Virus record (IMG/VR): IMGVR_UViG_3300025133_006719
Span: 15,300-79,299 of that record
DNA length: 64,000 nucleotides
Reading direction: 5' to 3' (one strand)
Source of the DNA: a virus
Both the position numbers and the translations under genes were made by a program. This document shows, piece after piece, positions 7,951-63,160 of the stretch (the first letter of the stretch is position 1; each line of letters begins with the position of its first letter). A model generated the notes under the pieces. It saw only the letters and a list, made by a program, of their open reading frames with translations, was not told the origin of the DNA and ran no database searches.

Positions 7951-8987
7951 AAAACGTAATAATAACGGGAGTGACAGGACAGGACGGCTCCAATATGGCT
8001 GACCACCTCATAAACAACCATGAGGACATCCATGTCTACGGAATGTCTAGGAGGGTTTCGATACCGAATAACAACAACATCAAGCACTTACTGTCCCACC
8101 CCAGATTTACCCTGTTTCATGGCGACCTTACTGATTCAACGAGCATAAACAGCGCCGTAAAGAAGTATTCCCCAGATTATTTTTTAAATTTTGCTGCTAA
8201 CTCTTATGTTGGATGTAGCTGGACAAGCCCCATCCATGTCTGGGAAACCAATACGACTGGTTTACTTAGATGTTTAGAAGCCATTAGGTGCTATGCCCCC
8301 AAATGTCGGTTCTATAGCGCTGGTAGCTCTGAAGAGATGGGGGACGTGGATTACTCACCACAAGACCTTAAACACCCCATTAAACCCAGAAGCCCCTATG
8401 GAGCCTCTAAGGCAGCTTGTAGGCACCTAACTAAGGTTTACAGAGAGTCTTACAACCTTTTCGCTATCCATAGCATTTTATTCAACCACGAAGGATTGAG
8501 GAGAGGTGAGGAATTTGTCACACGTAAAATTACAAAAGGCGTAGCCAAAATTAAGAAAAGCATAAAAAACAATGAAGACATTATTCCCATTCGATTAGGC
8601 AACGTTAATTCAAGGAGAGACTGGTCTGATTCTGAGGATTTTATGAGGGGTGTTTGGATGATGATGCAGCAAGACGAACCCAAAGAGCATATCCTAGCTA
8701 GCGGAGAGACCCATTCCATTAAAGACTTTGTCGCAACTGCCTTTGCTGCCGCCGGTATCCCCGGTTTATGGAGTGGGGAAGGAATGGACGAAAAGTTTAG
8801 GCTTTTTCAAGAGAACACGGTCTTAGCGGAAATAGATAATGAATTTTATAGGCCAGCGGAAGTCGAGCTTTTGTGGGGAGACTCAACATCAGCTAGAAAA
8901 GAACTAGGATGGGAACCGCAGATTTCGTTTGACAAACTAGTAGAACGTATGGTACACTGTGACCTTGCGTTGAATGACGGACTTTGA
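7947..8987 (+). CDS. gmd: GDP-mannose 4,6-dehydratase
   Basis: ITGVTGQDGS, PRSPYG.SK, ILFNHE..RRG.EFVTRKIT, RPAEV.LL.GD. Confidence 0.95.
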   Translation: MKNVIITGVTGQDGSNMADHLINNHEDIHVYGMSRRVSIPNNNNIKHLLSHPRFTLFHGDLTDSTSINSAVKKYSPDYFLNFAANSYVGCSWTSPIHVWETNTTGLLRCLEAIRCYAPKCRFYSAGSSEEMGDVDYSPQDLKHPIKPRSPYGASKAACRHLTKVYRESYNLFAIHSILFNHEGLRRGEEFVTRKITKGVAKIKKSIKNNEDIIPIRLGNVNSRRDWSDSEDFMRGVWMMMQQDEPKEHILASGETHSIKDFVATAFAAAGIPGLWSGEGMDEKFRLFQENTVLAEIDNEFYRPAEVELLWGDSTSARKELGWEPQISFDKLVERMVHCDLALNDGL

Positions 8988-9405: not shown

Positions 9406-10462
9406 AGAAAAAATAGCACAACTACTTAATGATAAAAGGTTTAAGGGCCATCACTACAACACCAGCGCCCCCATTGATTGGTGTAGCAGTACCGGGAGCA
9501 TCGCACTAGACATCTTTATGGACGGCGGGCTTACCCCGGGTATATTCAGGGCGTCAGGCGAACCGGAGAGCGGAAAGACCAGCTTCGCTTTAAACTGTGC
9601 AAAAATATTTCAAGAGACAGTAAAGAATTCATTTGTCTTTTATGTTAACGCCGAAGGCAGACTTAATAAGATTCTTCTTGAAAGGAGCGGGATATCCCTC
9701 AAGGAAGACAAGTGGTTTTGTTTAGATAGCAATATGCTTGAGCCAAGCTTAGGCATGATAAAGGAGTTAGTACTAGACAACAAAAATAATTATCAATATT
9801 TATTTATCTTAGATTCTACAGATGCTCTTTGTAGGGTGGAGGATTTAAACAAAGACTTCTCTCAAGGCCAAAAAGTCGCAGGTTCAGCGGTTACTTTTTC
9901 GTTTGCGGGTAAATCTCTTAGCTTACCTATTACAAGATACGGTCACGCTATGATAGTTTTATCTCAAACCAGAACGAAGATGAACACTACCGGCTATGGC
10001 GCAACTGGCGGATCAACTGTTTCCGGAGGCAAAGCTTTGGGGTTTTATAGTTCAGTTATGGCAGAAATACAGCCCCTATGGACAGACCTTTATATTTGGG
10101 AAAACCCATCAGCAGCTTCAATTAAAGACAAAGGGAAACGTCTCGGCCACTATTGCGTTATGAAGTTCTCGAAGACTCGTAACGAAAAAACCGGGCAGAC
10201 GGTGGCTATTCCAGTTAAGTACTCCCAACAAGGAGGGGCCATATGGAGGGAAGTCGAAATTTATATGCTTTTACTACAGTTTGAGTTCCTTAAAAAGTCG
10301 GGGGCATGGTATGTTTTTTCAGACGATTTAGTGGAAGAGGTAGAGTCTCAAAAGATTGAGATTAAACAAAAGTTCCAAGGAGAAAGAAATCTTTGGGCCT
10401 ATTTGGCGGGGAATGATAAGCTTTTAGATTTCCTGTCAAACAAGTTTAAAGAACTCATTTGA
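9398..10462 (+). CDS. recA: RecA/UvsX-like recombinase
   Basis: STGS..LD, GEPESGKT Walker A, ILDS Walker B, SQ.R, GG.AL.FYSS, KSGAWY. Confidence 0.9.
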   Translation: MSKEKIAQLLNDKRFKGHHYNTSAPIDWCSSTGSIALDIFMDGGLTPGIFRASGEPESGKTSFALNCAKIFQETVKNSFVFYVNAEGRLNKILLERSGISLKEDKWFCLDSNMLEPSLGMIKELVLDNKNNYQYLFILDSTDALCRVEDLNKDFSQGQKVAGSAVTFSFAGKSLSLPITRYGHAMIVLSQTRTKMNTTGYGATGGSTVSGGKALGFYSSVMAEIQPLWTDLYIWENPSAASIKDKGKRLGHYCVMKFSKTRNEKTGQTVAIPVKYSQQGGAIWREVEIYMLLLQFEFLKKSGAWYVFSDDLVEEVESQKIEIKQKFQGERNLWAYLAGNDKLLDFLSNKFKELI

Positions 10463-14625: not shown

Positions 14626-15602
14626 AAAAAGAAAAAATCTTATCAGCGTCAAGGATCAAGACTTTAGAAAGCTGTTCGTGGTCTTACTATTGTAACTACG
14701 AACTAAAGATACCCCAGAGACAGAATGAGGGATCTTTGCGCGGAACTATATGCCATTTAGTATTTGAGTTAATTCTAAAAAAGAAACATAATCGACATAA
14801 AGAATTAATCTCAAAAGCTTCCAGCTTAGACGGAAGCCCCTCCATTAAAAGATTAATAATCAAACATTTAAACCAAGACGCGAAAGAGCACGACCTGCCA
14901 ATGAACTCGGAGGAGAATTACGAGTTAATCAATAAGATGATTGTAGTTGGGCTGAGGTATGACTTTTTTGGAGAAGGGGGAAAGGTCACCGACCCAGAAA
15001 AAGAGTTCTTAGTAGTAAGCGAGAAACCAAAATACAAAATACGAGGCTTCATGGATAAGCCTATAATGTACAAAAAAGATAAGACCATCAAAATTGTAGA
15101 CTATAAAAGCAGTAAGCAGAAATTTAGAGGAGAAGAGCTTACCGCAAACATACAAGCGATGTCTTACTCTTTAGCTTCTTTAAAACTTTGGCCAACACTT
15201 AAACCTACTATTGAGTTTCTATTTCTAAGGTTTCCTAAGTCAGCCGCACAACAATGTGTTTATACAGTGGAGGAACTTGAAGGTTTTGAATACTTTTTAG
15301 AGAGTTGTTATAAACAAATAAATTCATTTTCGGAGAAAGATGCGAGAACCAATTACGCCAAAGACGGAAAGTCCTCTTGGATGTGTAAGGCTGGCAAGAC
15401 TTGGAGATGCCCATACCTAGACGCTTTTGACTATTACGAGCTACAAGATAAGGATTCTAAATTTATCAGATCAGCGAGAAAAAAAGAAAATTTGAAACAA
15501 AAAAAAGGTGAGAAGATAGTAGAGAAGAGGTATGACGGCTGTCCCGCTCACCCCCACCCAAGCAAGCAAATAGACATAATAGACGACTTGTTTGACTTTT
15601 AA
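14622..15602 (+). CDS. PD-(D/E)XK nuclease (Cas4/RecB-like)
   Basis: LSAS.I, GT..H, RGFMD, IVDYKSS, Q..SY, C-terminal Cys cluster. Confidence 0.85.
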   Translation: MKKEKILSASRIKTLESCSWSYYCNYELKIPQRQNEGSLRGTICHLVFELILKKKHNRHKELISKASSLDGSPSIKRLIIKHLNQDAKEHDLPMNSEENYELINKMIVVGLRYDFFGEGGKVTDPEKEFLVVSEKPKYKIRGFMDKPIMYKKDKTIKIVDYKSSKQKFRGEELTANIQAMSYSLASLKLWPTLKPTIEFLFLRFPKSAAQQCVYTVEELEGFEYFLESCYKQINSFSEKDARTNYAKDGKSSWMCKAGKTWRCPYLDAFDYYELQDKDSKFIRSARKKENLKQKKGEKIVEKRYDGCPAHPHPSKQIDIIDDLFDF

Positions 15603-55015: not shown

Positions 55016-55043
55016 ACTGATAATTTGTGTCATGTGTTATGCG

Positions 55044-55073
55044 CCTCCCTAGCGAAAGCTAGGGAGGTTTTTT
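55044..55073 (+). terminator. intrinsic terminator
   Basis: CCTCCCTAGC-GAAA-GCTAGGGAGG plus T6. Confidence 0.9.
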
Positions 55074-55084
55074 GTTATCAGAAG

Positions 55085-55328
55085 GAAAAATAAATAAATG
55101 TAAATAAGACAAATAAATAAGCATTATAATTCGCCACTTTTCGCCACTTTCTTCAATATAGCTAAATAACAATTAAATAAATGCCCACTTTTTGCCACTT
55201 TACAAAATAAGATTAAATAAATAAGCATATAATACCTTAATAAGTATGTAAATTTGCCTATAGACTGATAGATCTACATAGATAATTGTAATTACTTGAT
55301 TATAGTTTAATTGTAAAAGTATAAATTT
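55085..55328. repeat. AT-rich tract with (G/C)CCACTTT repeats
   Basis: Copies at 55133, 55143, 55184, 55194; many TAAATAA. Confidence 0.6.
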
Positions 55329-55353
55329 GGCCTGCCGCCGAGATTTAAGAGTC

Positions 55354-55413
55354 ATAAGTCATTGACTGTCAAAGGCTTACGAGGGGCGCAGCCGCGATTG
55401 CAAACCGTGTCAA
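55354..55413 (+). repeat. composite palindromic site R1
   Basis: ATAAGTCATTGA-CTG-TCAAAGGCTTAC, core GCGCAGCCGCGATT, degenerate second arm. Confidence 0.75.
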
Positions 55414-55436
55414 CCGTTTATTTTAAGAGTGGCAAC

Positions 55437-55465
55437 AAAAAAAGCCGCCCCCCGAAGGGAGCGGC
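55437..55465 (-). terminator. intrinsic terminator
   Basis: GCCGCTCCC-TTCG-GGGGGCGGC plus T7 on minus strand. Confidence 0.85.
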
Positions 55466-55481
55466 CTGATGAGGGAGGAGC

Positions 55482-56546
55482 CTAGGAAATGATTGCTTCC
55501 TCAAGTTTTGCCGCAGCCTCGGCCTCGGCCTTTTTCTTGGCCTCTTTTTTCTCCAGCTTGATGGCTTTTGGAGCCTTGCAGGGAGAGACGAGGGTTTCCC
55601 ACGCATCCTTTTTGGCCAAGGCTCGCGTGAACTCTCCGAGAACTTTATTCTCGGTCAACCGCGCATACTCGAAACGCTTCGGCTGAACCGTGTGCGTGAG
55701 ATGCTGCGTGGTGGCGTTGTACAGGTTCCAAAGGTTCCTGTCACGATCAAACTCCCCACCGCGACCATTGCCGATGGCCTGTTCGTTCCAGATGAATTCG
55801 ATTGAATCCTTCATGGACTCAGACAGAACTTTTTTCTGGGCCAACCGATTAAGGATGAAAACACCTTGGTCGATGCCGTTGTTCCTGTCGATTTTCAGCT
55901 CGCGCTGGGCGAACTGCGAAAACGAGTCAATGGTTTTGTGCCATTGCTCGACTGCATCCTCAATGCCGTCCTTAATGGTTACGACAGAGATCTTGTTGCT
56001 GTGACGCGCTGTGATGCTCGTCAGGGTAACATTCGAGGTCATGCCATTCAGACACGCCAGACGCTTCGCCGCGCCCTCAAGACCAGCTTTACAAGAGCGA
56101 TCAAAAGAGTTTCGGAGAATGAAGGCCATACCGACAGTATCGCCAACCCTTGCGCTACCACCAAGTGGGCGAGGATTGTTGAACTCGTAACGACCAAAAA
56201 AGCGCGAACCATTTTCCGTAATGGAAATGTCGCGCTTACCTTCGGCGAAGCCGGGGATGTTAACCACATGGCCTTGCTCGTTGAGCTGACGGGTGCTGGT
56301 ATGCTGACCCCAGTTTTTCAACTCGTCGTAATCTTGAAACGCCTCTTCAAGGCTTTCAACCAATACGGAATTCTGGAGCAAACCATACTGCTCTGTTATT
56401 CCATCGCCTAATGACTCACCTGTATCGGTGCGAACATTACTAAACCTCCCCGTCCAACGGTTGGAGCCGTTGTGCTGGATGTAGGTCTTGCGCTGCTCGA
56501 CTTGGTAGTCGAACTCACTCGTTACTTGTTTGCTATCTCTGGGCAT
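55482..56546 (-). CDS. DUF932 (LGT_TIGR03299-like) family protein
   Basis: R.DTG..LG......Y..LQN, NSFD.S, R..C.NG, RH, NLWNLYNA.T. Confidence 0.8.
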   Translation of the reverse strand: MPRDSKQVTSEFDYQVEQRKTYIQHNGSNRWTGRFSNVRTDTGESLGDGITEQYGLLQNSVLVESLEEAFQDYDELKNWGQHTSTRQLNEQGHVVNIPGFAEGKRDISITENGSRFFGRYEFNNPRPLGGSARVGDTVGMAFILRNSFDRSCKAGLEGAAKRLACLNGMTSNVTLTSITARHSNKISVVTIKDGIEDAVEQWHKTIDSFSQFAQRELKIDRNNGIDQGVFILNRLAQKKVLSESMKDSIEFIWNEQAIGNGRGGEFDRDRNLWNLYNATTQHLTHTVQPKRFEYARLTENKVLGEFTRALAKKDAWETLVSPCKAPKAIKLEKKEAKKKAEAEAAAKLEEAIIS

Positions 56547-56592
56547 TTTTTGTTTCCTTTCTGGTTTGTGTCCCTCTCAATCGGGAGAACCC

Positions 56593-56621
56593 ATTATGCC
56601 ATACAGGGGCTTAACAGTCAA
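56593..56621 (-). promoter_or_regulatory. sigma70-type promoter with CCCC spacer
   Basis: TTGACT-17-CATAAT on minus strand. Confidence 0.65.
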
Positions 56622-56661
56622 CCTCTTTTTCTCATTATTATTAAAAAAGTTTCACAATTAA

Positions 56662-56757
56662 AAGCTTGACACGTAAGTCGTTGACTATCAATGACTTAGG
56701 CTGCGCGGCTGCCGCGTTTGTAACCTACTGACTATCAGTGACTTAACTGTCAAGCTT
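56662..56757 (-). repeat. composite palindromic site R2
   Basis: GTAAGTCGTTGA-CTA-TCAATGACTTAG, 20-bp GC core, GTAACCTACTGA-CTA-TCAGTGACTTAA; outer IR AAGCTTGACA/TGTCAAGCTT. Confidence 0.85.
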
Positions 56758-56797
56758 AAACTGTCGATTACACAAAAAACTTTTTTCTATAATCTTG

Positions 56798-56825
56798 TTG
56801 ACAATGCTGCCCGTTGTGGTAGAAT
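56798..56825 (+). promoter_or_regulatory. sigma70-type promoter
   Basis: TTGACA-16-TAGAAT with GCCC spacer. Confidence 0.7.
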
Positions 56826-56843
56826 GTTTTCAGGCGTTAGGTT

Positions 56844-57287
56844 ATGAGAAGATTAGAAATCCAAAAAGATGGGCGCGACAAGTGGTATGCGCGGTTCAGA
56901 GCGGAAGGCTCTCACGATGCGATCTTGCAAAGTTATTCTTTCTATAATCACGGAGCAACGAATGTTCCCGAACCTGACTGGCGAAGTGATGTCGAATTTG
57001 TATTCGTGACAAGCGAGGCTAAACTGTTTCGGTATTTTGTCAACTCTACTTTTTGGCAGTTATCTGTGACAGGTAAACAGTATAAAGGGGTCGTTGGTGG
57101 TTGGCTTACAATCGCAAGAGAAGTATCTGTCGAGAAGATGTCCAACCTAGTATTTACTGGCGATATTAAAATCAGAAGAACCTTTTTAAATGTGTTCTCA
57201 ACTGGTACAATCGCAGCAGAGCGACCAGACTCTGACAATGAAGTGCAGCAAGATTTTAAAGTTAACGTAGATAATTATCATGACTAG
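56844..57287 (+). CDS. hypothetical protein
   Basis: ORF downstream of promoter. Confidence 0.65.
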   Translation: MRRLEIQKDGRDKWYARFRAEGSHDAILQSYSFYNHGATNVPEPDWRSDVEFVFVTSEAKLFRYFVNSTFWQLSVTGKQYKGVVGGWLTIAREVSVEKMSNLVFTGDIKIRRTFLNVFSTGTIAAERPDSDNEVQQDFKVNVDNYHD

Positions 57288-57456
57288 AGACATCATAAAA
57301 CAAGGAGATTGGGGCTATGGCGACACAAAGGGCCTAGCCAAAGCGGTTGACGTAGGCTATCAAAAATGGCTCAAAAAGAATGGGCTAGAACCAGAGGGCT
57401 ACAATAGGAAAACCAACAAGGGAAATTTTTCCTACGGGAAGAGCAAAAACAAGTAA
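57280..57456 (+). CDS. hypothetical basic protein (58 aa)
   Basis: Coupled ORF MTRDIIKQGDWGYG... Confidence 0.55.
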   Translation: MTRDIIKQGDWGYGDTKGLAKAVDVGYQKWLKKNGLEPEGYNRKTNKGNFSYGKSKNK

Positions 57457-57463
57457 TACCATT

Positions 57464-57658
57464 ATGGCAAACGATAAACCAAAAAAAGGCATGGGAGCCT
57501 ATAGGTTACCCAAGGAGACACTCGACACATTAAAGGCTGTAAGCGAGAAGTCAGGAATACCAACAGCAACCATTGTTTCACGATGTTTAGAGAAACAGAA
57601 GGTTTTAGATGTTGTAAGAGAACACCTTGCCAAAGCCACGGAGGCGTTGGCAGAATAG
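57464..57658 (+). CDS. ribbon-helix-helix DNA-binding protein
   Basis: YRLP.E....LK..SE.SGIP...IV...LE. Confidence 0.65.
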   Translation: MANDKPKKGMGAYRLPKETLDTLKAVSEKSGIPTATIVSRCLEKQKVLDVVREHLAKATEALAE

Positions 57659-57669
57659 GGGAACACCAG

Positions 57670-57697
57670 TCTTGCCCCTTCGGGGGCAAGATTTTTT
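57670..57697 (+). terminator. intrinsic terminator
   Basis: TCTTGCCCC-TTCG-GGGGCAAGA plus T6. Confidence 0.9.
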
Positions 57698-57739
57698 CCC
57701 TTGACTATCTAGGCCCAAACCACTATAATTGACGACGTT

Positions 57740-58495
57740 ATGACAACACCGAAACTACTAAACAAACTCGACATATTTTTTGAAAACGCCAAGCTCAAAG
57801 GTATTTGGCATTTTTCCTTACCAAGTGGCTGGACGTGTCCGGGTGCTTCTAATTGCCTGACAAAAGCAGACGAAGTCACGGGCAAGATAACAGACTTGCA
57901 GAAGCCCGACGAAAAAGGGGAAACGTACCGATGCTATGCGGCGGGGATGGAAAACAGGTTTCCAAAAGTAAGAGCCTCCCGATTCAAAAACTTTGAGCTT
58001 ATTAAAAAAGCCAAGACAGAGAAAAACATTACCGCTTTAATTGTCAGAAGTATACCGCAGGGACTGCGAAGCGTTGGGGGATATCTGCGGGTGCATATCG
58101 GCGGTGACTTTTTCAGTCAAACCTATTTCAACGCATGGATGAAAGCGGCGGCGTTCTTTCCTCGCGTTACCTTTTACAGCTACACAAAGAGCGTTCACTA
58201 TTTGGCAAAGTATTTAGAAACTAACAAGCTGCCAGAAAACTACAAGTTCACCTGTTCGTCTGGCGGAAAGCATGACAAGTTAATTAAGCAGACAGGAATC
58301 AAGACAGCAACCGTGTTTTTTAGCCAAAGAGCAATCGACGAGAAAAAGCTCGAAACCGATCACACCGACGAAAAGGCAATCTTCGGGAGTGTCAATTTCG
58401 CTTTAGCTCTTCACGGACAGCAGCCAAAAGGGAGCGCGGCAGTCAAAGCGTTGAAAGCCTTGAAAAAAGAAGGCTTCACGGGCTACTCAAATTAA
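57740..58495 (+). CDS. GP88-family protein (radical-SAM-like Cys cluster)
   Basis: FSLP.G.TCPGA..C, CYA, RVH..GDFF, YSYTK; promoter TTGACT-17-TATAAT at 57701. Confidence 0.75.
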   Translation: MTTPKLLNKLDIFFENAKLKGIWHFSLPSGWTCPGASNCLTKADEVTGKITDLQKPDEKGETYRCYAAGMENRFPKVRASRFKNFELIKKAKTEKNITALIVRSIPQGLRSVGGYLRVHIGGDFFSQTYFNAWMKAAAFFPRVTFYSYTKSVHYLAKYLETNKLPENYKFTCSSGGKHDKLIKQTGIKTATVFFSQRAIDEKKLETDHTDEKAIFGSVNFALALHGQQPKGSAAVKALKALKKEGFTGYSN

Positions 58496-58577
58496 TTCAA
58501 CTCACAAGAAAAATGCTGACCGTGGCCTTGTTGGTTGTTTGGTTTTTGGTATATTCAATGTACCGAATCAATGATAA

Positions 58578-58856
58578 ATGAAGATGGAACATATAAAAAA
58601 CGGTGCTTTATATTATAATAATATAACGGGCAGGGTGGAAAGAGTAATCGGAAAAGTGTCACCAGTCAGGGCGCTGACATATTGGCATCATACCGAGGAG
58701 AAAAGCCACAACGTCAAAGTATTAAGAAAAGCAAACCAATTAGAAGTTGAGAATTACCTTGATGGGGGGGATATTCCCACACTTAAAAAGAGAATCTTAA
58801 ATACAATAAATAAACTATTTAATAAGAGTGACAAACTAAAGTTTAAAGTGTCATAA
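58578..58856 (+). CDS. hypothetical protein
   Basis: ORF followed by terminator. Confidence 0.6.
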   Translation: MKMEHIKNGALYYNNITGRVERVIGKVSPVRALTYWHHTEEKSHNVKVLRKANQLEVENYLDGGDIPTLKKRILNTINKLFNKSDKLKFKVS

Positions 58857-58884
58857 TCCTCCCGAGAAACTATAAAGGTTTCGG

Positions 58885-58913
58885 AGCCCCTGCGAGTGCG
58901 GGGGCTTTTTTTT
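58885..58913 (+). terminator. intrinsic terminator
   Basis: AGCCCCTGC-GAGT-GCGGGGGCT plus T-run. Confidence 0.85.
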
Positions 58914-58918
58914 GTGTC

Positions 58919-58992
58919 GTAAAGCGTTGGTACTCAGTGGTTTAGGGGCGCGGCAGGCGCGTGAGCTAACCCATTGACTGTCAACGACTTAC
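58919..58992 (+). repeat. composite palindromic site R3
   Basis: GTAAAGCGTTGG-TAC-TCAGTGGTTTAG, 20-bp GC core, CTAACCCATTGA-CTG-TCAACGACTTAC. Confidence 0.85.
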
Positions 58993-59008
58993 GACGATGT
59001 TTTTTTTG

Positions 59009-59037
59009 TTGACATGTTGGTTGGTGTATGTTATAAT
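59009..59037 (+). promoter_or_regulatory. consensus sigma70 promoter
   Basis: TTGACA-17-TATAAT with extended TG. Confidence 0.85.
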
Positions 59038-59043
59038 GCCCCC

Positions 59044-59166
59044 ATGAAAAAGAAAGTGACAGCTAAACCACGCGCCAAGGTTGATTGGAATACTGGTGAA
59101 CGTATACATCCACCCAAAAAGGGTAAAGGGTCATACAATCGTAAAAAAAGTAAAAAAAGTAGTTGA
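59044..59166 (+). CDS. ArfA-like alternative ribosome-rescue factor (40 aa, not in ORF track)
   Basis: MKKKVTAKPRAKVDWNTGERIHPPKKGKGSYNRKKSKKSS; KKGKGSYxRK ArfA signature; ATG at predicted TSS. Confidence 0.65.
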   Translation: MKKKVTAKPRAKVDWNTGERIHPPKKGKGSYNRKKSKKSS

Positions 59167-59201
59167 CTTTGATTACCCCGCGTGATATCATATTAAAAGT
59201 T

Positions 59202-59825
59202 ATGAGGGAATTCATTAGTTGGAAGGATGCAGGGCCACGCAAGATGATGGACGGCATCGAAGTCGCACCGGATCGCGTGAAGGTTTATTTCAATCTACAT
59301 TTGGATTGCCTGTCGGTGATCGACGCCGAGACGGGATTGCTTTATTGTCACGCTCATCGTGTTGAATTGCGTGATGCAAAGTTTAGGGTGCAGGAGGCGG
59401 GTCGCCAGCGAGTCCTTCGGGAAAAGCGTAAGAATGTTCACGCCTACGTTGTTGGAAAATGTCATGAGATTGGTGACGTTTCCAAAGAACGCTTTCGCGA
59501 GGTTGATAATGAGTTATACGAGAAGTACAGCATCTGTGATTGCGGCGACAAACCATACGACTACTGCGAGCAATGTGTGCCAGAGTCAGGCGAGGAGTTT
59601 CGCGGAGGATATTATAATCCTTACAAGTTCAAAACCTTTGTTGATGACATTAACAAAACGCCGATCTACAAGTCGAGCAGGGTGATGATCCGAGACAAGA
59701 CAGCCATAGGGCCGCACTACAACATCTTTTACATACCAGAGCCAAAGAAGAAAAGAGAGCCTTGGAACAAAGGTATGAAGTATACCCATAGAGGGTTACG
59801 AGCAAGAAAACTATCACAAGTATGA
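59202..59825 (+). CDS. conserved phage protein
   Basis: VYFNLH, GR.RVLREKRKNVHAYV, YNPYK; promoter TTGACT-17-TATCAT at 59163. Confidence 0.7.
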   Translation: MREFISWKDAGPRKMMDGIEVAPDRVKVYFNLHLDCLSVIDAETGLLYCHAHRVELRDAKFRVQEAGRQRVLREKRKNVHAYVVGKCHEIGDVSKERFREVDNELYEKYSICDCGDKPYDYCEQCVPESGEEFRGGYYNPYKFKTFVDDINKTPIYKSSRVMIRDKTAIGPHYNIFYIPEPKKKREPWNKGMKYTHRGLRARKLSQV

Positions 59826-60145
59826 GTTGGTATCCAAACGATTGTCAGGAATGCGGTAAGCCCATCGAAGGCGACTGGGAGAGTCAGATCGCTCTCGGAA
59901 TAGAGACGGGTGAAATTACAGATAGGCCAAGCAACCGCTTGTTTATCTATGACAAGCATATCCGTTGTTCTCCTAGTAGGGCGCAGCGGATAGTCCACCC
60001 CGACTTTCCTCCGGTGGTCGATGAGCGACCACAGTTTGATTGGCGGCGGGATGATGGACCTTGGGATGATGGGATGCGGAAGAAGTACAAGAAACTCTAC
60101 ACAGAGGCTTGGGTAAGACTCCAAGAAAAAAGGGTTGACAAGTAA
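59822..60145 (+). CDS. hypothetical protein with CxxC
   Basis: CQECG...HIRC. Confidence 0.6.
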   Translation: MSWYPNDCQECGKPIEGDWESQIALGIETGEITDRPSNRLFIYDKHIRCSPSRAQRIVHPDFPPVVDERPQFDWRRDDGPWDDGMRKKYKKLYTEAWVRLQEKRVDK

Positions 60146-60173
60146 GCCCCCGTGTGGTAAGATTATTAAAGTT

Positions 60174-60434
60174 ATGACAAAACTAACAAACAAACTAAAG
60201 GAAAAGGTTCGAGCTTGGCTCAACATTAGAGAGAGAGTTACTGACTATGTGATGGTCTACTCTCCAGAGAAACACGCAACCAAAGTCTACTACCTCAAAG
60301 GCACTCGGAGAGGCTGGAGTCCCTTATACAAGGATCAAAAGGAAGTAGGCTTCAAGGCTAGGGTTTACAACCGCGATTTACAGGTCAGAAGTTTTAGGGC
60401 TGACAGGATAGTTTCTTTAGCTGCACGAAGTTAA
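60174..60434 (+). CDS. WYL-domain-like small protein
   Basis: RSFRADRI motif; promoter TTGACA-17-TAAGAT at 60135. Confidence 0.6.
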   Translation: MTKLTNKLKEKVRAWLNIRERVTDYVMVYSPEKHATKVYYLKGTRRGWSPLYKDQKEVGFKARVYNRDLQVRSFRADRIVSLAARS

Positions 60435-60444
60435 AAGAAAGGGG

Positions 60445-60472
60445 TTGACAACTCTGCCCCATCTGGTAAGAT
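60445..60472 (+). promoter_or_regulatory. promoter of ncRNA operon
   Basis: TTGACA-16-TAAGAT with GCCCC spacer and extended TG. Confidence 0.75.
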
Positions 60473-60584
60473 TAATGAGTTGTTATTGTTCATGTTAACG
60501 TAGTGGGTTATGGTTAAGAGTCAGGCAGGGCTGACTTAAAAGATTAGGGCGGGAACGCATTGCTAATCACCCCCTGACACTTTT

Positions 60585-60597
60585 TGTTCTTTGAAAA
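60585..60597 (+). promoter_or_regulatory. boxA-like antitermination element
   Basis: TGTTCTTTGAAAA. Confidence 0.6.
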
Positions 60598-60600
60598 TTT

Positions 60601-60749
60601 GCTCTTGAGTTTGCAGTCAGATCTGGGCGGTTGCACCGACATGCTTCTTCGCCCTCTCTCACAACCTAAAAAAACTCGGACTCGCGTCTAGCGTCGGAAA
60701 AGCGTTAACTCGTTTTGAAAAGGTTAGATATTAGAGTTTCCTCAAGAGC
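60601..60749 (+). ncRNA. structured ncRNA domain B (unidentified)
   Basis: Closed by perfect 9-bp GCTCTTGAG/CTCAAGAGC; internal GGGCG/CGCCC and AACCT/AGGTT. Confidence 0.6.
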
Positions 60750-60757
60750 GATCAATT

Positions 60758-60909
60758 TGAGTTGGCGAGTAAATTGGCTTTTAAGCCGACAACGCCTCCA
60801 TCGCCCTAAGCTATAAACGCGCTGGGACAGGGATGGTAAGACATTTTACGCGACTGCGCTTGCAATACAGCGCGATCACACTACTGGTGGCGCGGTAGCA
60901 ACTCATTCA
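60758..60909 (+). ncRNA. structured ncRNA domain C (unidentified, multibranch)
   Basis: 7-bp TGAGTTG/CAACTCA closing stem with internal GTAAA/TTTAC, CCATC/GATGG, GCGCT/AGCGC, CTAC/GTAG stems. Confidence 0.6.
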
Positions 60910-60914
60910 ATTTT

Positions 60915-61100
60915 TCTCACTCGACGGAGTGAGATCGGTGTGACGGAATAATCCCTCCCAAAGGGGTAACGTAGCGACTGCGAGAAGTACAACGGCCTAG
61001 TGGCAGAGGAAAATCGCGGGTGAGTCCGAAGTAAGTCGATCTGAAACATTTGTTTTCTGGGGACTGAAAAGGTGCGGGTACACAAATACTCCCGCCACCA
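60915..61100 (+). ncRNA. structured ncRNA domain D (possibly manA-motif-like)
   Basis: TCTCACTC/GAGTGAGA, GATCGG/TCGATC, TGCGA/TCGCG stems; 3' GGTGCGGG..CCCGCCACCA then T8. Confidence 0.55.
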
Positions 61101-61114
61101 TTTTTTTTAATATA

Positions 61115-61312
61115 ATGACATACTATAAGTGTTGCGAATGTGATAAGATTTTTGAATGGGATGAGGATGTTCGTCCCCATCATACAGATAATTTATTGTG
61201 TGATGATTGTGGCAGCGCAGATTGGTCTAAAAGGCCCTTAATAGTAAACAAATGGAGTTTGATGAGTTATACAAAGAAACAATTAAAGCATTTGAACAAG
61301 AAGAGCAAATGA
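61115..61312 (+). CDS. small Zn-finger protein
   Basis: CCEC...CDDC. Confidence 0.6.
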   Translation: MTYYKCCECDKIFEWDEDVRPHHTDNLLCDDCGSADWSKRPLIVNKWSLMSYTKKQLKHLNKKSK

Positions 61313-61527
61313 AAACAAAACATTTACAAAAGAAGGCCGCGAAGAAGAAGGTCACGCGACAAGTTAAGCATGATAAGATTGTCATGCGGGATCATGTTCG
61401 GGGTGAGATGAAGAGGCACATTGAGTATCAAATCAAATCCCTTCGGCAAAGAAACGCAGCCGATTGCGACGTCGTTGCGTTCATAAATAAGAAGTTCGCG
61501 CAAATACGTCAAATAATATCAGAGTAG
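61309..61527 (+). CDS. hypothetical basic protein
   Basis: Coupled ORF. Confidence 0.55.
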   Translation: MKTKHLQKKAAKKKVTRQVKHDKIVMRDHVRGEMKRHIEYQIKSLRQRNAADCDVVAFINKKFAQIRQIISE

Positions 61528-61536
61528 GTAATCCGC

Positions 61537-61609
61537 TTAAACCGCTAAGCCGCAACGGTTTAGCAGGGGCGCAGCCGCAAACGCAAGCCATTGATGATCA
61601 ACGACTTAC
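61537..61609 (+). repeat. composite palindromic site R4
   Basis: TTAAACCGCTAA-GCC-GCAACGGTTTAG, 19-bp core with GCGCAGCCGC, GCAAGCCATTGA-TGA-TCAACGACTTAC. Confidence 0.8.
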
Positions 61610-61774
61610 GCGCTCTACCGCAGTAAAGACCACGGGGTGATAATACTTCGGGCCGATCCGTTGATGGTTCTTTTGGAATTTGATAATCGCCTCCTCTTCA
61701 AACCATGCGCGTACTTCTATCTTGTCGCCTTGGTTAGTTGTGAAAAGATAAGTGTTGCGTATGTCGTCGATCAT
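61598..61774 (-). CDS. hypothetical protein; stop codon lies inside R4
   Basis: Last codons CGC GTA AGT CGT TGA come from the palindrome arm. Confidence 0.55.
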   Translation of the reverse strand: MIDDIRNTYLFTTNQGDKIEVRAWFEEEAIIKFQKNHQRIGPKYYHPVVFTAVERVSR

Positions 61775-61776
61775 TT

Positions 61777-61953
61777 TCAATATCCGTTGTAAGATACGGT
61801 TGTGCCATACTTCTTGCGCTTGGCATCAGCGGCCTTCCGCATGGTATCGTGGTAGGAGCCTTCGCTCCAGTCCGCTTTAGGGTATTGAGCTTCTGCCTCC
61901 TTGAGTTGTTTCACTCGCTCCCAGCTAGGCACGCCATATATCTGGTCTTTCAT
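61777..61953 (-). CDS. hypothetical protein (58 aa)
   Basis: Coupled ORF MKDQIYGVPSWERV... Confidence 0.55.
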   Translation of the reverse strand: MKDQIYGVPSWERVKQLKEAEAQYPKADWSEGSYHDTMRKAADAKRKKYGTTVSYNGY

Positions 61954-62153
61954 AGTGGCATAGTCCAGTTACAGTATGATCCTGACGCACACCTTTCGCA
62001 TACTGGTACGGCTGTGCCATCATCATCTGTATTTAGCTCACAGCTAGACATAGGGAACCAGCCATTACATGAGTAACATTTGGCTGCGTCCTCATCGTCT
62101 TGTAGGTGGATAACCTGTGTGGATACGTCATCCCATGTGATGTTATCGTTCAT
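61950..62153 (-). CDS. small Zn-finger protein
   Basis: CYSC...CERC; GGAGG SD. Confidence 0.6.
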   Translation of the reverse strand: MNDNITWDDVSTQVIHLQDDEDAAKCYSCNGWFPMSSCELNTDDDGTAVPVCERCASGSYCNWTMPL

Positions 62154-62380
62154 GCGTCCACCTCCGTTTCGTTTTCCCAAGGGCTGTCCGCAGTATAGTG
62201 GTTACTGTCCCAATTAAATGAGAAGTATTCGTTAAAGAGGGCCAAGTTGAATTTTGACTCTATACTCTCGGTTTTGGCTGCTGCTTGTAGTATTTCCCTC
62301 ATAGAATTAAGCCTTCTCCGCATCTCCTCTGTTCCCGCTTTTGTTCGCGGCCTCATCCAATCATCATCTATTTGTTTCAT
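62150..62380 (-). CDS. hypothetical protein
   Basis: Coupled ORF. Confidence 0.55.
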   Translation of the reverse strand: MKQIDDDWMRPRTKAGTEEMRRRLNSMREILQAAAKTESIESKFNLALFNEYFSFNWDSNHYTADSPWENETEVDA

Positions 62381-62381
62381 A

Positions 62382-62621
62382 TCAGTTGTCGGTGTACATT
62401 ACGTCATAAAGAGTTTCCTGAACTTTTTTGAGCCTTCTATCTGCTTGCGTCAATGTAGCATGAGCTTGCTCTTCGCTACATAAGCCGCCGAGGTTGTTGG
62501 TCAGAAAGGTCAAGCCGCCTCTTACTTGCGCGATTTTTCCAGTTAATTTTGCCAGATCGATGTCCGTGCTGAAGCGTTTACTTTTGTAGTTATAATCATT
62601 CATGTTTTTTTTCTCACTCAC
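62382..62621 (-). CDS. hypothetical protein
   Basis: Promoter TTGACT-17-TAGAAT (62657-62629, minus). Confidence 0.6.
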   Translation of the reverse strand: MSEKKNMNDYNYKSKRFSTDIDLAKLTGKIAQVRGGLTFLTNNLGGLCSEEQAHATLTQADRRLKKVQETLYDVMYTDN

Positions 62622-62660
62622 TTGTTATATTCTATCACGCTCTGCCTACAAAGTCAACAA

Positions 62661-62948
62661 TTATTTAGTGTTAAAATGACCGCAAGAACCCCATGCCATA
62701 TCTGGATCGCCATACTTCTTGTCCCATCCTAACGGACTTATGCCTGACATAAGAAACTCCCTGTCGCCAGCGCATAACGATTTCAACGCCATTATGCTGC
62801 CCGTCTGCCTCATCTGAAAGAGTTCCGAACCTTTAACGCTCACACTATAAGGAGCTTCCGTCACGACGCACTTGCCCGTGAATGTGTAGATATGCTCCGG
62901 CTCGTAAGTCTCGGAGTAACTGCAACCTGTGTCGATAAACCTTGTCAT
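62661..62948 (-). CDS. conserved phage protein
   Basis: L...DREFLMSGISP.GWD motif; promoter TTGACA-17-TATAAT (62987-62959, minus) fixes start. Confidence 0.65.
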   Translation of the reverse strand: MTRFIDTGCSYSETYEPEHIYTFTGKCVVTEAPYSVSVKGSELFQMRQTGSIMALKSLCAGDREFLMSGISPLGWDKKYGDPDMAWGSCGHFNTK

Positions 62949-63075
62949 AACGCCGTTAATTATACCAACAGCTAAACACAATGTCAACAAATAACTCAAA
63001 GTTTTTTAATATACTTTGTAATAACACCAAATAGGAAACCAAATAGCATCAAATATAATATATTAATAATACACT

Positions 63076-63160
63076 ATAAGCCCTTAATAGTAAATGACTT
63101 GAGTCATGGTTTAGAATCGCGGCTGCCCGCGACGTAACCCATTGATAATCAAAGAGTTAC
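63076..63160 (-). repeat. composite palindromic site R5
   Basis: Degenerate left palindrome, core AATCGCGGCTGC (exact reverse complement of R1 core), GTAACCCATTGA-TAA-TCAAAGAGTTAC. Confidence 0.8.

Follow-up and report, generated by a model that had tools for sequence, protein, structure and literature searches.

Arrays of repeated protein-binding sites are known from several phages, among them the conserved inverted repeats of phiC31, the stoperators of mycobacteriophages, and the SPBRE of SPbeta, which belongs to the master repressor. A second well-described class comprises binding sites for integration host factor (IHF), whose classical contexts are the arms of attachment (att) sites, small mobile repeats, and the regions upstream of promoters, as illustrated by the H2 and H′ sites flanking the core of lambda attP, by small repeats of the Correia/RIP type, and by phage early promoters. 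In T4-type phages, promoter-early stem-loops (PeSLs) have been reported (Arbiol et al. 2010, PMC2839356; Comeau et al. 2014, PMC4122927). Here, we examine five composite palindromic sites, termed R1 to R5, in a 64,000-nucleotide (nt) stretch of viral DNA (positions 15,300 to 79,299 of IMG/VR record IMGVR_UViG_3300025133_006719; hereafter the window). We consider it somewhat probable that these sites are architectural or operator boundary elements that double as PeSL-like recombination hot spots, with no dedicated recombinase.

The array resembles PeSLs in being composed of repeated intergenic motifs of ~100 bp in hyperplastic regions of small accessory genes, in containing a GC-rich (polyG/polyC) segment, and in the indels and replacements between relatives that map beside the repeats, for which the proposed mechanism is homologous recombination between repeats. 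There are also distinctions. A PeSL combines a sigma70 promoter with a terminator stem-loop, whereas the units described here comprise one or two 27-bp palindromes around a GC-rich spacer. In the window, the promoter lies outside the repeat, at a distance of 16, 51, or 102 nt, and is absent at R1 and R4; moreover, R1 and R3 have separate canonical terminators, and the palindromes are foldable but without covariation. The window phage, which has a DnaE-like polymerase, is itself not T4-type.

An earlier note, made from the letters of this DNA alone, had placed five sites here, and their positions proved correct. The half-palindrome pattern TTGAYNRTCAANGNSTTA, with up to two mismatches allowed, occurs 12 times in the window against 1.18 expected, a count reached by none of 100 shuffles. 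All 12 matches fall within 55,355-63,159; the first 55 kb are free of copies, as the note had it, and so are the 15.3 kb of the record upstream of the window. Because the 3′ edge of the window is the end of the contig (a record of 79,299 bp with a CheckV completeness of 52%), the array may continue beyond 63 kb. GC content rises from ~0.38 (1-55 kb) to ~0.45 (55-64 kb), with the step at R1, where the array begins; an AT-rich non-coding gap of 280 bp (55070-55350) lies just before R1. None of the Rfam families covers the five sites.

Scored against the family consensus GTAASTCRTTGA-N3-TCAAYGASTTAC, each site has one good palindrome with one to three mismatches (the first in R1 and R2, the second in R3, R4, and R5), and only R2 has two that are recognizable. 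R1 (55354-55427) begins with its palindrome at 55354-55380 (three mismatches), followed by a spacer at 55381-55400 that contains GCAGCCGC and a degenerate partner at 55401-55427 (17 mismatches), and lies between two facing terminators, at 55043-55068 on the plus strand and 55467-55442 on the minus strand. R2 (56673-56746) consists of a palindrome at 56673-56699 with one mismatch and a perfect IHF consensus on the plus strand, a spacer at 56700-56719 (CGCGGC-T-GCCGCG), and a second palindrome at 56720-56746 with five mismatches; it is located exactly 51 nt from the −35 boxes of both divergent promoters (56621 on the minus strand and 56798 on the plus strand). In R3 (58919-58992), which follows the terminator at 58883-58908, a degenerate palindrome (58919-58945, seven mismatches) precedes the spacer (58946-58965) and the good palindrome (58966-58992, two mismatches), and 16 nt separate the end of the site from the −35 box of the consensus promoter at 59009. 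R4 (61536-61609) is situated between convergent genes and has a spacer at 61564-61582 (GCAGCCGC) and a palindrome at 61583-61609 (two mismatches), within which lies the stop codon of the minus-strand open reading frame (ORF) 61598-61780; its partner position differs from the consensus at 16 positions and is occupied by an unrelated short palindrome (61545-61563). R5 (63090-63160), 102 nt upstream of the minus-strand consensus promoter at 62987, comprises a degenerate partner (63090-63114, 17 mismatches), a spacer (63115-63133, GCGGCTGC), and a palindrome (63134-63160, two mismatches) that matches the IHF consensus perfectly on both strands. R4 and R5 are without a separate canonical terminator.

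The five copies are 68-76% alike, and their flanks are unrelated. The earlier note had described two palindromes around an asymmetric, GC-rich core, one palindrome being degenerate in R1 and R5. The degeneracy in R1 and R5 was borne out, but two palindromes at each of the other sites were not, given the 16 and seven mismatches in R4 and R3. Similarly, the spacers are indeed GC-rich, 19-20 nt long, and, with R3 deviating, carry a common 8-bp motif (GCAGCCGC / GCGGCTGC), and the exact 12-bp reverse complement shared by the R1 and R5 cores (GCAGCCGCGATT / AATCGCGGCTGC) is present; the asymmetry is slight, however, as the shared motif is most of a small palindrome, GCGGC-W-GCCGC, and its orientation rests on a few bases. 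The three coding-strand switches fall at R1, R2, and R4 as had been stated, and strong sigma70-type promoters and terminators do flank the sites. Since R1, R2, and R3 sit behind or between terminators or upstream of promoters, they are mostly outside transcripts, which points to a role at the DNA level.

The window sites appear to be members of a conserved class of intergenic elements, ~75 bp long, that mark boundaries in the accessory (early) islands of one clade of large uncultured aquatic phages. The canonical unit would be two palindromes flanking a stiff, GC-rich spacer of fixed length; in the window, R2 alone has both, one palindrome having decayed at the other four sites. A scan of the record and related phages, a step that the note had suggested, uncovered the exact 21-mer pattern in at least 118 viral contigs, and relaxed scans recovered 368 distinct palindromes in 91 viral loci. 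These form 225 composites, whose start-to-start distances peak sharply at two values, 48 and 50 bp, and whose spacers have a mean GC content of 0.75 in genomes of ~40% GC. In three complete (100%) relatives of 148, 172, and 182 kb, the sites are confined to one or two islands of 3-10 kb. Across relatives, 87% of the palindromes are intergenic, and convergent gaps are richer in sites than co-directional ones (44% vs 20%). The palindrome sequence is conserved, yet the proteins of the phages that bear it are only 30-60% identical. Spacer motifs, by contrast, are lineage-specific and alike within a genome (6-mer sharing of 0.25 within vs 0.09 between genomes); for instance, in both L023 and L073, sites 2 and 4 carry one and the same spacer, which differs between the two genomes. 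A BLAST search of cultured phages with the canonical composite returned chance matches only, so the array was found in no cultured phage, and no published description of the element was found, literature matches to the half-site 12-mers being unrelated primers and satellites. The idea of a conserved, functional boundary-type element has thus held up.

What is conserved in the palindrome is its sequence and not its pairing. Where the half-sites vary, complementarity between them is no more frequent than expected for independent draws (positions 8/20: 124 observed, 126.5 expected), mutual information between half-site positions does not exceed 0.07 bit across the 368 palindromes, and long-range pairing of one palindrome of a composite with the other fares no better. 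The hairpin and long-hairpin models were rejected on this lack of covariation, and the palindrome is therefore predicted to be a site for a symmetric DNA-binding protein. Known motifs were also considered: FNR/FixK (TTGA-N6-TCAA), MexR (GTTGA-N5-TCAAC), NtcA, Fur, dif, and the C-box were dropped because their spacing or half-sites do not fit.

The closest likeness is to IHF sites. The IHF consensus WATCAANNNNTTR, itself checked in the literature, occurs in each half with its W on the dyad, and a perfect match on one strand or both is found in 207 of 342 palindromes (61%); the centre triplet, on which there is otherwise no constraint, is T-W-A-like in 75% against 30% expected. The extent of ~27-29 bp suits a wrapping protein, and the contexts in which the palindrome occurs (att cores, the inside of a miniature inverted-repeat transposable element (MITE), and upstream of promoters) match as well. 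On the other hand, the phage palindrome is perfectly dyad-symmetric with four extra conserved positions in each half, and its extended form is almost absent from Enterobacterales; IHF binding here is a prediction from sequence. Each 27-29-bp palindrome would accordingly serve as a candidate docking site for a symmetric DNA-binding protein, most likely an architectural protein of the IHF/HU (DNABII) type that bends DNA and comes from the host. The elements occupy intervals between transcription units, where they follow terminators, separate divergent or convergent units, and often precede sigma70-type promoters at a constant distance; in these positions, they probably shape or insulate early transcription. 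They would also be the only long sequence common to otherwise unrelated blocks, with a palindrome homologous to copies in both orientations. Because of this shared sequence and orientation-independent homology, general recombination could cross over at the sites, and blocks would therefore be swapped, flipped, or lost beside them in relatives, in a PeSL-like manner that involves no dedicated site-specific recombinase.

The same palindrome is present in certain bacterial chromosomes. Among 185,579 bacterial species genomes, the strict consensus has 35 exact matches against 0.27 expected, five of which are in mis-binned phage contigs. In Fibrobacter, 23 of 26 genomes contain one to six copies, the reversed control giving 0 matches; the copies precede, by ~100 bp, the promoters that serve giant adhesin-like genes and an HD-domain gene. 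At 11 Fibrobacter loci, the promoter is of the TAnnTTTG type, the giant proteins carry Big_9/cadherin repeats, and their genes are divergent from a 136-aa gene and an M23 peptidase gene. The genes neighbouring the palindrome in Fibrobacter have no homologue in the phage arrays. One Akkermansia metagenome-assembled genome (MAG) has 20 copies, 17 of them intergenic and often between divergent genes of unrelated function, and two Bacteroidota MAGs have 23 and 26. In one of the latter two, a Saprospiraceae MAG (G189), the palindrome stands beside a GC hairpin at the centre of a multi-copy MITE-like repeat of ~150 bp; at nine loci, the terminal inverted repeats of this element are CGGAATTATCGGCTTTATGGTAC and its complement, and one contig bears two oppositely oriented copies with 19 kb between them.

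In Bacteroidota MAGs, the palindrome is also associated with integration loci. In four cases, it is found 7-11 nt past a tRNA gene, with a tyrosine integrase gene ~55 nt further on in two of these and in a third locus beside a partial tRNA copy; on one short contig, the order is palindrome, tRNA-derived core, palindrome, and then int. Seven tRNA/integrase loci were noted, and the integrase subfamily is a weak-scoring one. At L191, the tRNA-Ser gene (405-492) is followed by the palindrome (501-527) and by the integrase gene from 581, and at L193 the palindrome lies 14 nt ahead of a 17-bp copy of the tRNA-Ser end. Judged from these arrangements, the Bacteroidota attP would take the form palindrome-core-palindrome. 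The att-arm, small-mobile-repeat, and promoter-upstream contexts would be those of architectural bending factors, and for CTnDOT integration Bacteroides has a documented host factor of the IHF/HU family (PMC6606824).

Several observations weigh against an IHF-like architectural factor. The extended palindrome occurs in only 4 of 151 Enterobacterales genomes and is patchy elsewhere (1/60 other Bacteroidota and 1/40 other Verrucomicrobiota), a rarity that weakens the idea of a universal host factor and argues instead for a specific, patchily distributed bacterial protein as the one that recognizes the palindrome. Conservation also extends beyond the IHF consensus (positions 1 and 5-8; four extra per half), and the binder may be more specific than Escherichia coli IHF. 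A family search found no DNABII genes in the phage genomes; such genes are present in all five palindrome-bearing bacterial genomes checked, which is uninformative because the family is universal. A recognizable sigma70-type promoter lies within 20 nt at only ~10% of site flanks, so a promoter-linked role is not general, and the uniformity of spacers within a genome is also what a multi-site recombination system would need. The binder proposed here is a candidate class.

The strongest competitor, which we regard as unlikely but worth real weight, is an operator function, in which a specific dimeric regulator encoded by the phage, either a repressor or an activator, would bind the sites to time the early units or shut them off. 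Such a regulator would account for half-sites that are independent and strongly conserved, for more conserved positions than the IHF consensus requires, and for the fixed −35 registers seen in some lineages (peaks at 5 nt and 15-17 nt), including the 51 nt between R2 and both divergent −35 boxes. The repressor arrays mentioned above are similar in presenting many copies of one protein-binding-type repeat between genes of an early region, but those repeats are short (13-17 bp) and bound by a known phage repressor, whereas in the present array the palindromes are paired at a fixed spacing across a GC spacer, and the motif occurs in bacterial chromosomes too, where no neighbouring gene is shared with the phages. 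A candidate regulator is encoded within the array: the gene at 57464-57658 (plus strand) specifies a 64-aa protein that weakly matches a ribbon-helix-helix family (PF12651, E 0.078). Its homologues were found only in the nearest relatives, L130 and L131. No DNA-binding gene is common to the arrays, and the commonest residents, GP88 (25 of 52 loci) and DUF932 (19 of 52), show no DNA-binding or recombinase fold match and were ruled out as candidates for either role by folding and comparison with the Protein Data Bank (PDB). Phage genes for a sigma70-family protein with regions 2 and 4 and for a PhoH-like ATPase are often found next to the arrays in other lineages (15 array loci). The earlier note had offered sites for a dimeric DNA-binding protein as its second choice, and this alternative fits the data better than the shufflon that it preferred.

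The relatives do rearrange. Five were retrieved through the gp82-like protein (L127-L131). In L130 and L131, R1-R4 are in place and a hydrolase gene is flipped, the proteins near these sites being 47-86% identical apart from one weak match of 25%; in L127-L129, the blocks between sites are permuted. Comparison of 37 closely related pairs yielded 142 homology break points, of which 30% fall no more than 30 nt from a palindrome; the figure for random positions is 8%, and the enrichment over intergenic controls is 1.9-fold. As the note had expected, therefore, relatives are non-collinear and break points gather at the sites; the sites do not delimit the exchanged segments, however, for one edge is at a site (≤30 nt) in 11 of 20 replacements or indels and both edges in only 2. 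The 16 finely mapped break points are scattered over palindromes, spacer, and flanks without focus on the core. Such a distribution is consistent with homology-guided exchange between conserved repeats of the kind described for PeSLs, and inconsistent with an active shufflon.

Exchange also takes place away from the sites. The minus-strand gene 62661-62999 (112 aa) has a homologue of 70% identity inside the gp82 block of L130 and L131, where it is found in the other orientation between a 40-aa ORF and the gp82-like gene (9693-9953 and 8015-8275, respectively). In the window, it is flanked by promoter regions (62620-62994, minus strand) that are inverted repeats of those of promoters 59009 and 59163 (59002-59200, plus strand), the repeated segments being 59002-59037 and 59154-59200. 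The comparison shows a single-gene move between promoter repeats, with the palindrome sites uninvolved. A further site-independent joint, 59804/62373, occurs in metagenome contigs.

It is improbable, in our assessment, that the units are true site-specific recombination sites, that is, attP-like sites at which a recombinase acting in trans (from the host, a satellite, or an unrecognized family) would insert, flip, excise, or capture promoter-bearing cassettes; were this so, the early island would be an integron-like platform. In common with shufflons, invertons, and integrons, repeated inverted arms with a short core bound the modules, and the order and orientation of modules differ among relatives. 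The layout resembles an attP and, in support of this part of the earlier note, is also seen beside tRNA genes and tyrosine integrases in some Bacteroidota MAGs; spacer motifs that are uniform within a genome, permuted or flipped blocks, and break points enriched at the sites would suit a recombinase too. No recombinase was found, however. Searches with PF00589 and PF00239 (tyrosine and serine recombinases) gave no match in the 79-kb record, which extends the note's own negative for the window, or in the three 100%-complete relatives, with positive controls; the palindrome-linked Bacteroidota integrase likewise has no homologue in the record or these relatives. Nor is there population heterogeneity at the sites in contigs. 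Those of four metagenome runs (2017-2021) cross R1-R5 in the window arrangement, and their assembly breaks lie elsewhere. The sole site-to-site joint links the R2 spacer (56707) to the R3 spacer (58952) at a depth of 3.9, with a shorter side of 26 nt; no other alternative arrangement was found at the sites, although contigs drop rare variants and low-frequency events are possible. Other metagenome joints with short sides (57395/60512, 59722/60518, and others) were left out of interpretation. Furthermore, most exchanges lack sites on both sides, single genes move without them, the modules carry their own promoters, and the window spacers share just the 8-bp GC motif, from which R3 deviates. The recombinase-driven shufflon or cassette system inferred in the note is thus supported in part by the comparisons between relatives, but not as a mechanism in this phage.

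A reading of the sites as nucleic-acid structures, namely bidirectional terminators, RNA processing hairpins, or cruciforms extruded by supercoiling, seems to us equally doubtful. Single-strand folding does beat shuffles at three of the five window sites (z −3.3 to −4.5), no separate canonical terminator stands at R4 or R5, convergent gaps are enriched in sites, and in some lineages A-runs and T-runs are found a few bases outside the element. The absence of compensatory variation among the 368 palindromes and the conservation of the sequence itself in phages of such divergent proteins tell against it, as does the position of R1 and R3 behind canonical terminators and of R2 between divergent promoters. 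T-runs of at least five within 20 nt downstream accompany just 17% of the palindromes, which weakens the terminator model in particular. Selfish mobile repeats (MITE-like or REPIN-like) that have spread into phage intergenic gaps are the least probable explanation, as the multi-copy Saprospiraceae element with its terminal inverted repeats and the spacers homogenized within genomes would suggest such spread, but near-identical copies with terminal repeats of their own are known only from that different element, the window copies are just 68-76% alike in unrelated flanks, R1-R4 keep their positions in L130 and L131 despite the divergence of nearby proteins, and the arrays contain no HUH or DDE candidate and no hairpin covariation.

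The blocks separated by the sites form dense, small transcription units between 55 and 64 kb, with consensus sigma70-type promoters and several terminators. The DUF932 gene (55482-56546, minus strand; PF06067, E 2.5e-9) is a single-gene unit bracketed by R1 and R2, and it also lies between two sites in all five relatives, flipped in L129. Its model (pLDDT 75) has no informative match in the PDB, and a literature search for DUF932 found no functional data. The R2-R3 block (56798-58908, plus strand) is made up of two transcription units, each with its own promoter and terminator. The first (56844-57658) holds three small genes, including the weakly ribbon-helix-helix-like one, and the second (57740-58856) a GP88-family gene and a 92-aa ORF. 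The GP88 gene (57740-58495) is a homologue, in a marine phage, of mycobacteriophage L5 gp88 (PF17338, E 2e-38); its model (pLDDT 71) forms part of a beta/alpha barrel, in which Cys33 and Cys65 are invariant, and the PDB gave only weak TIM-barrel-like matches for it.

The R3-R4 block (59009-61527, plus strand) has promoters at 59009, 59163, 60135, and 60445 and contains a 40-aa ORF, an L5 gp82-like gene (59202-59825; PF25735, E 8e-29), small ORFs, and a non-coding stretch (60480-61110) downstream of promoter 60445. Within this stretch, 60917-61105 (plus strand) is a full-length match to the Rfam manA family (RF01745; E 1.5e-9), with a score of 42.7 bits where the gathering score is 55.2. Contig depth in the bins covering 60680-61681 is 3- to 15-fold above that of neighbouring bins in four metagenomes, which indicates that many related phages share this stretch. 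The R4-R5 block (61598-62999, minus strand) has six small ORFs and promoters at 62987 and 62657.

The phage itself encodes rIIA/rIIB, a UvsX-like recombinase, a DnaB-like helicase, ribonucleotide reductase, and a clamp loader, and its DnaE-like polymerase is <30% identical to anything in cultured phages. A near-DNA search of cultured phages with the region gave no match, and 19 public runs with the label marine metagenome contain near-identical DNA. The phage is a member of a large uncultured lineage and no true T4 relative.

The element is apparently without prior publication, yet it is common in uncultured aquatic phages, and it offers a testable handle on how early units are organized and insulated in large lytic phages and on how their accessory islands are reshuffled. 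The occurrence of one palindrome in these phages, in Fibrobacter and Akkermansia, in a MITE, and at tRNA-integrase junctions points to a patchily distributed, probably DNA-bending protein whose specificity is unusually conserved. This DNA-binding protein is apparently exploited by the phages, and naming it would hint at the hosts of the phage clade.

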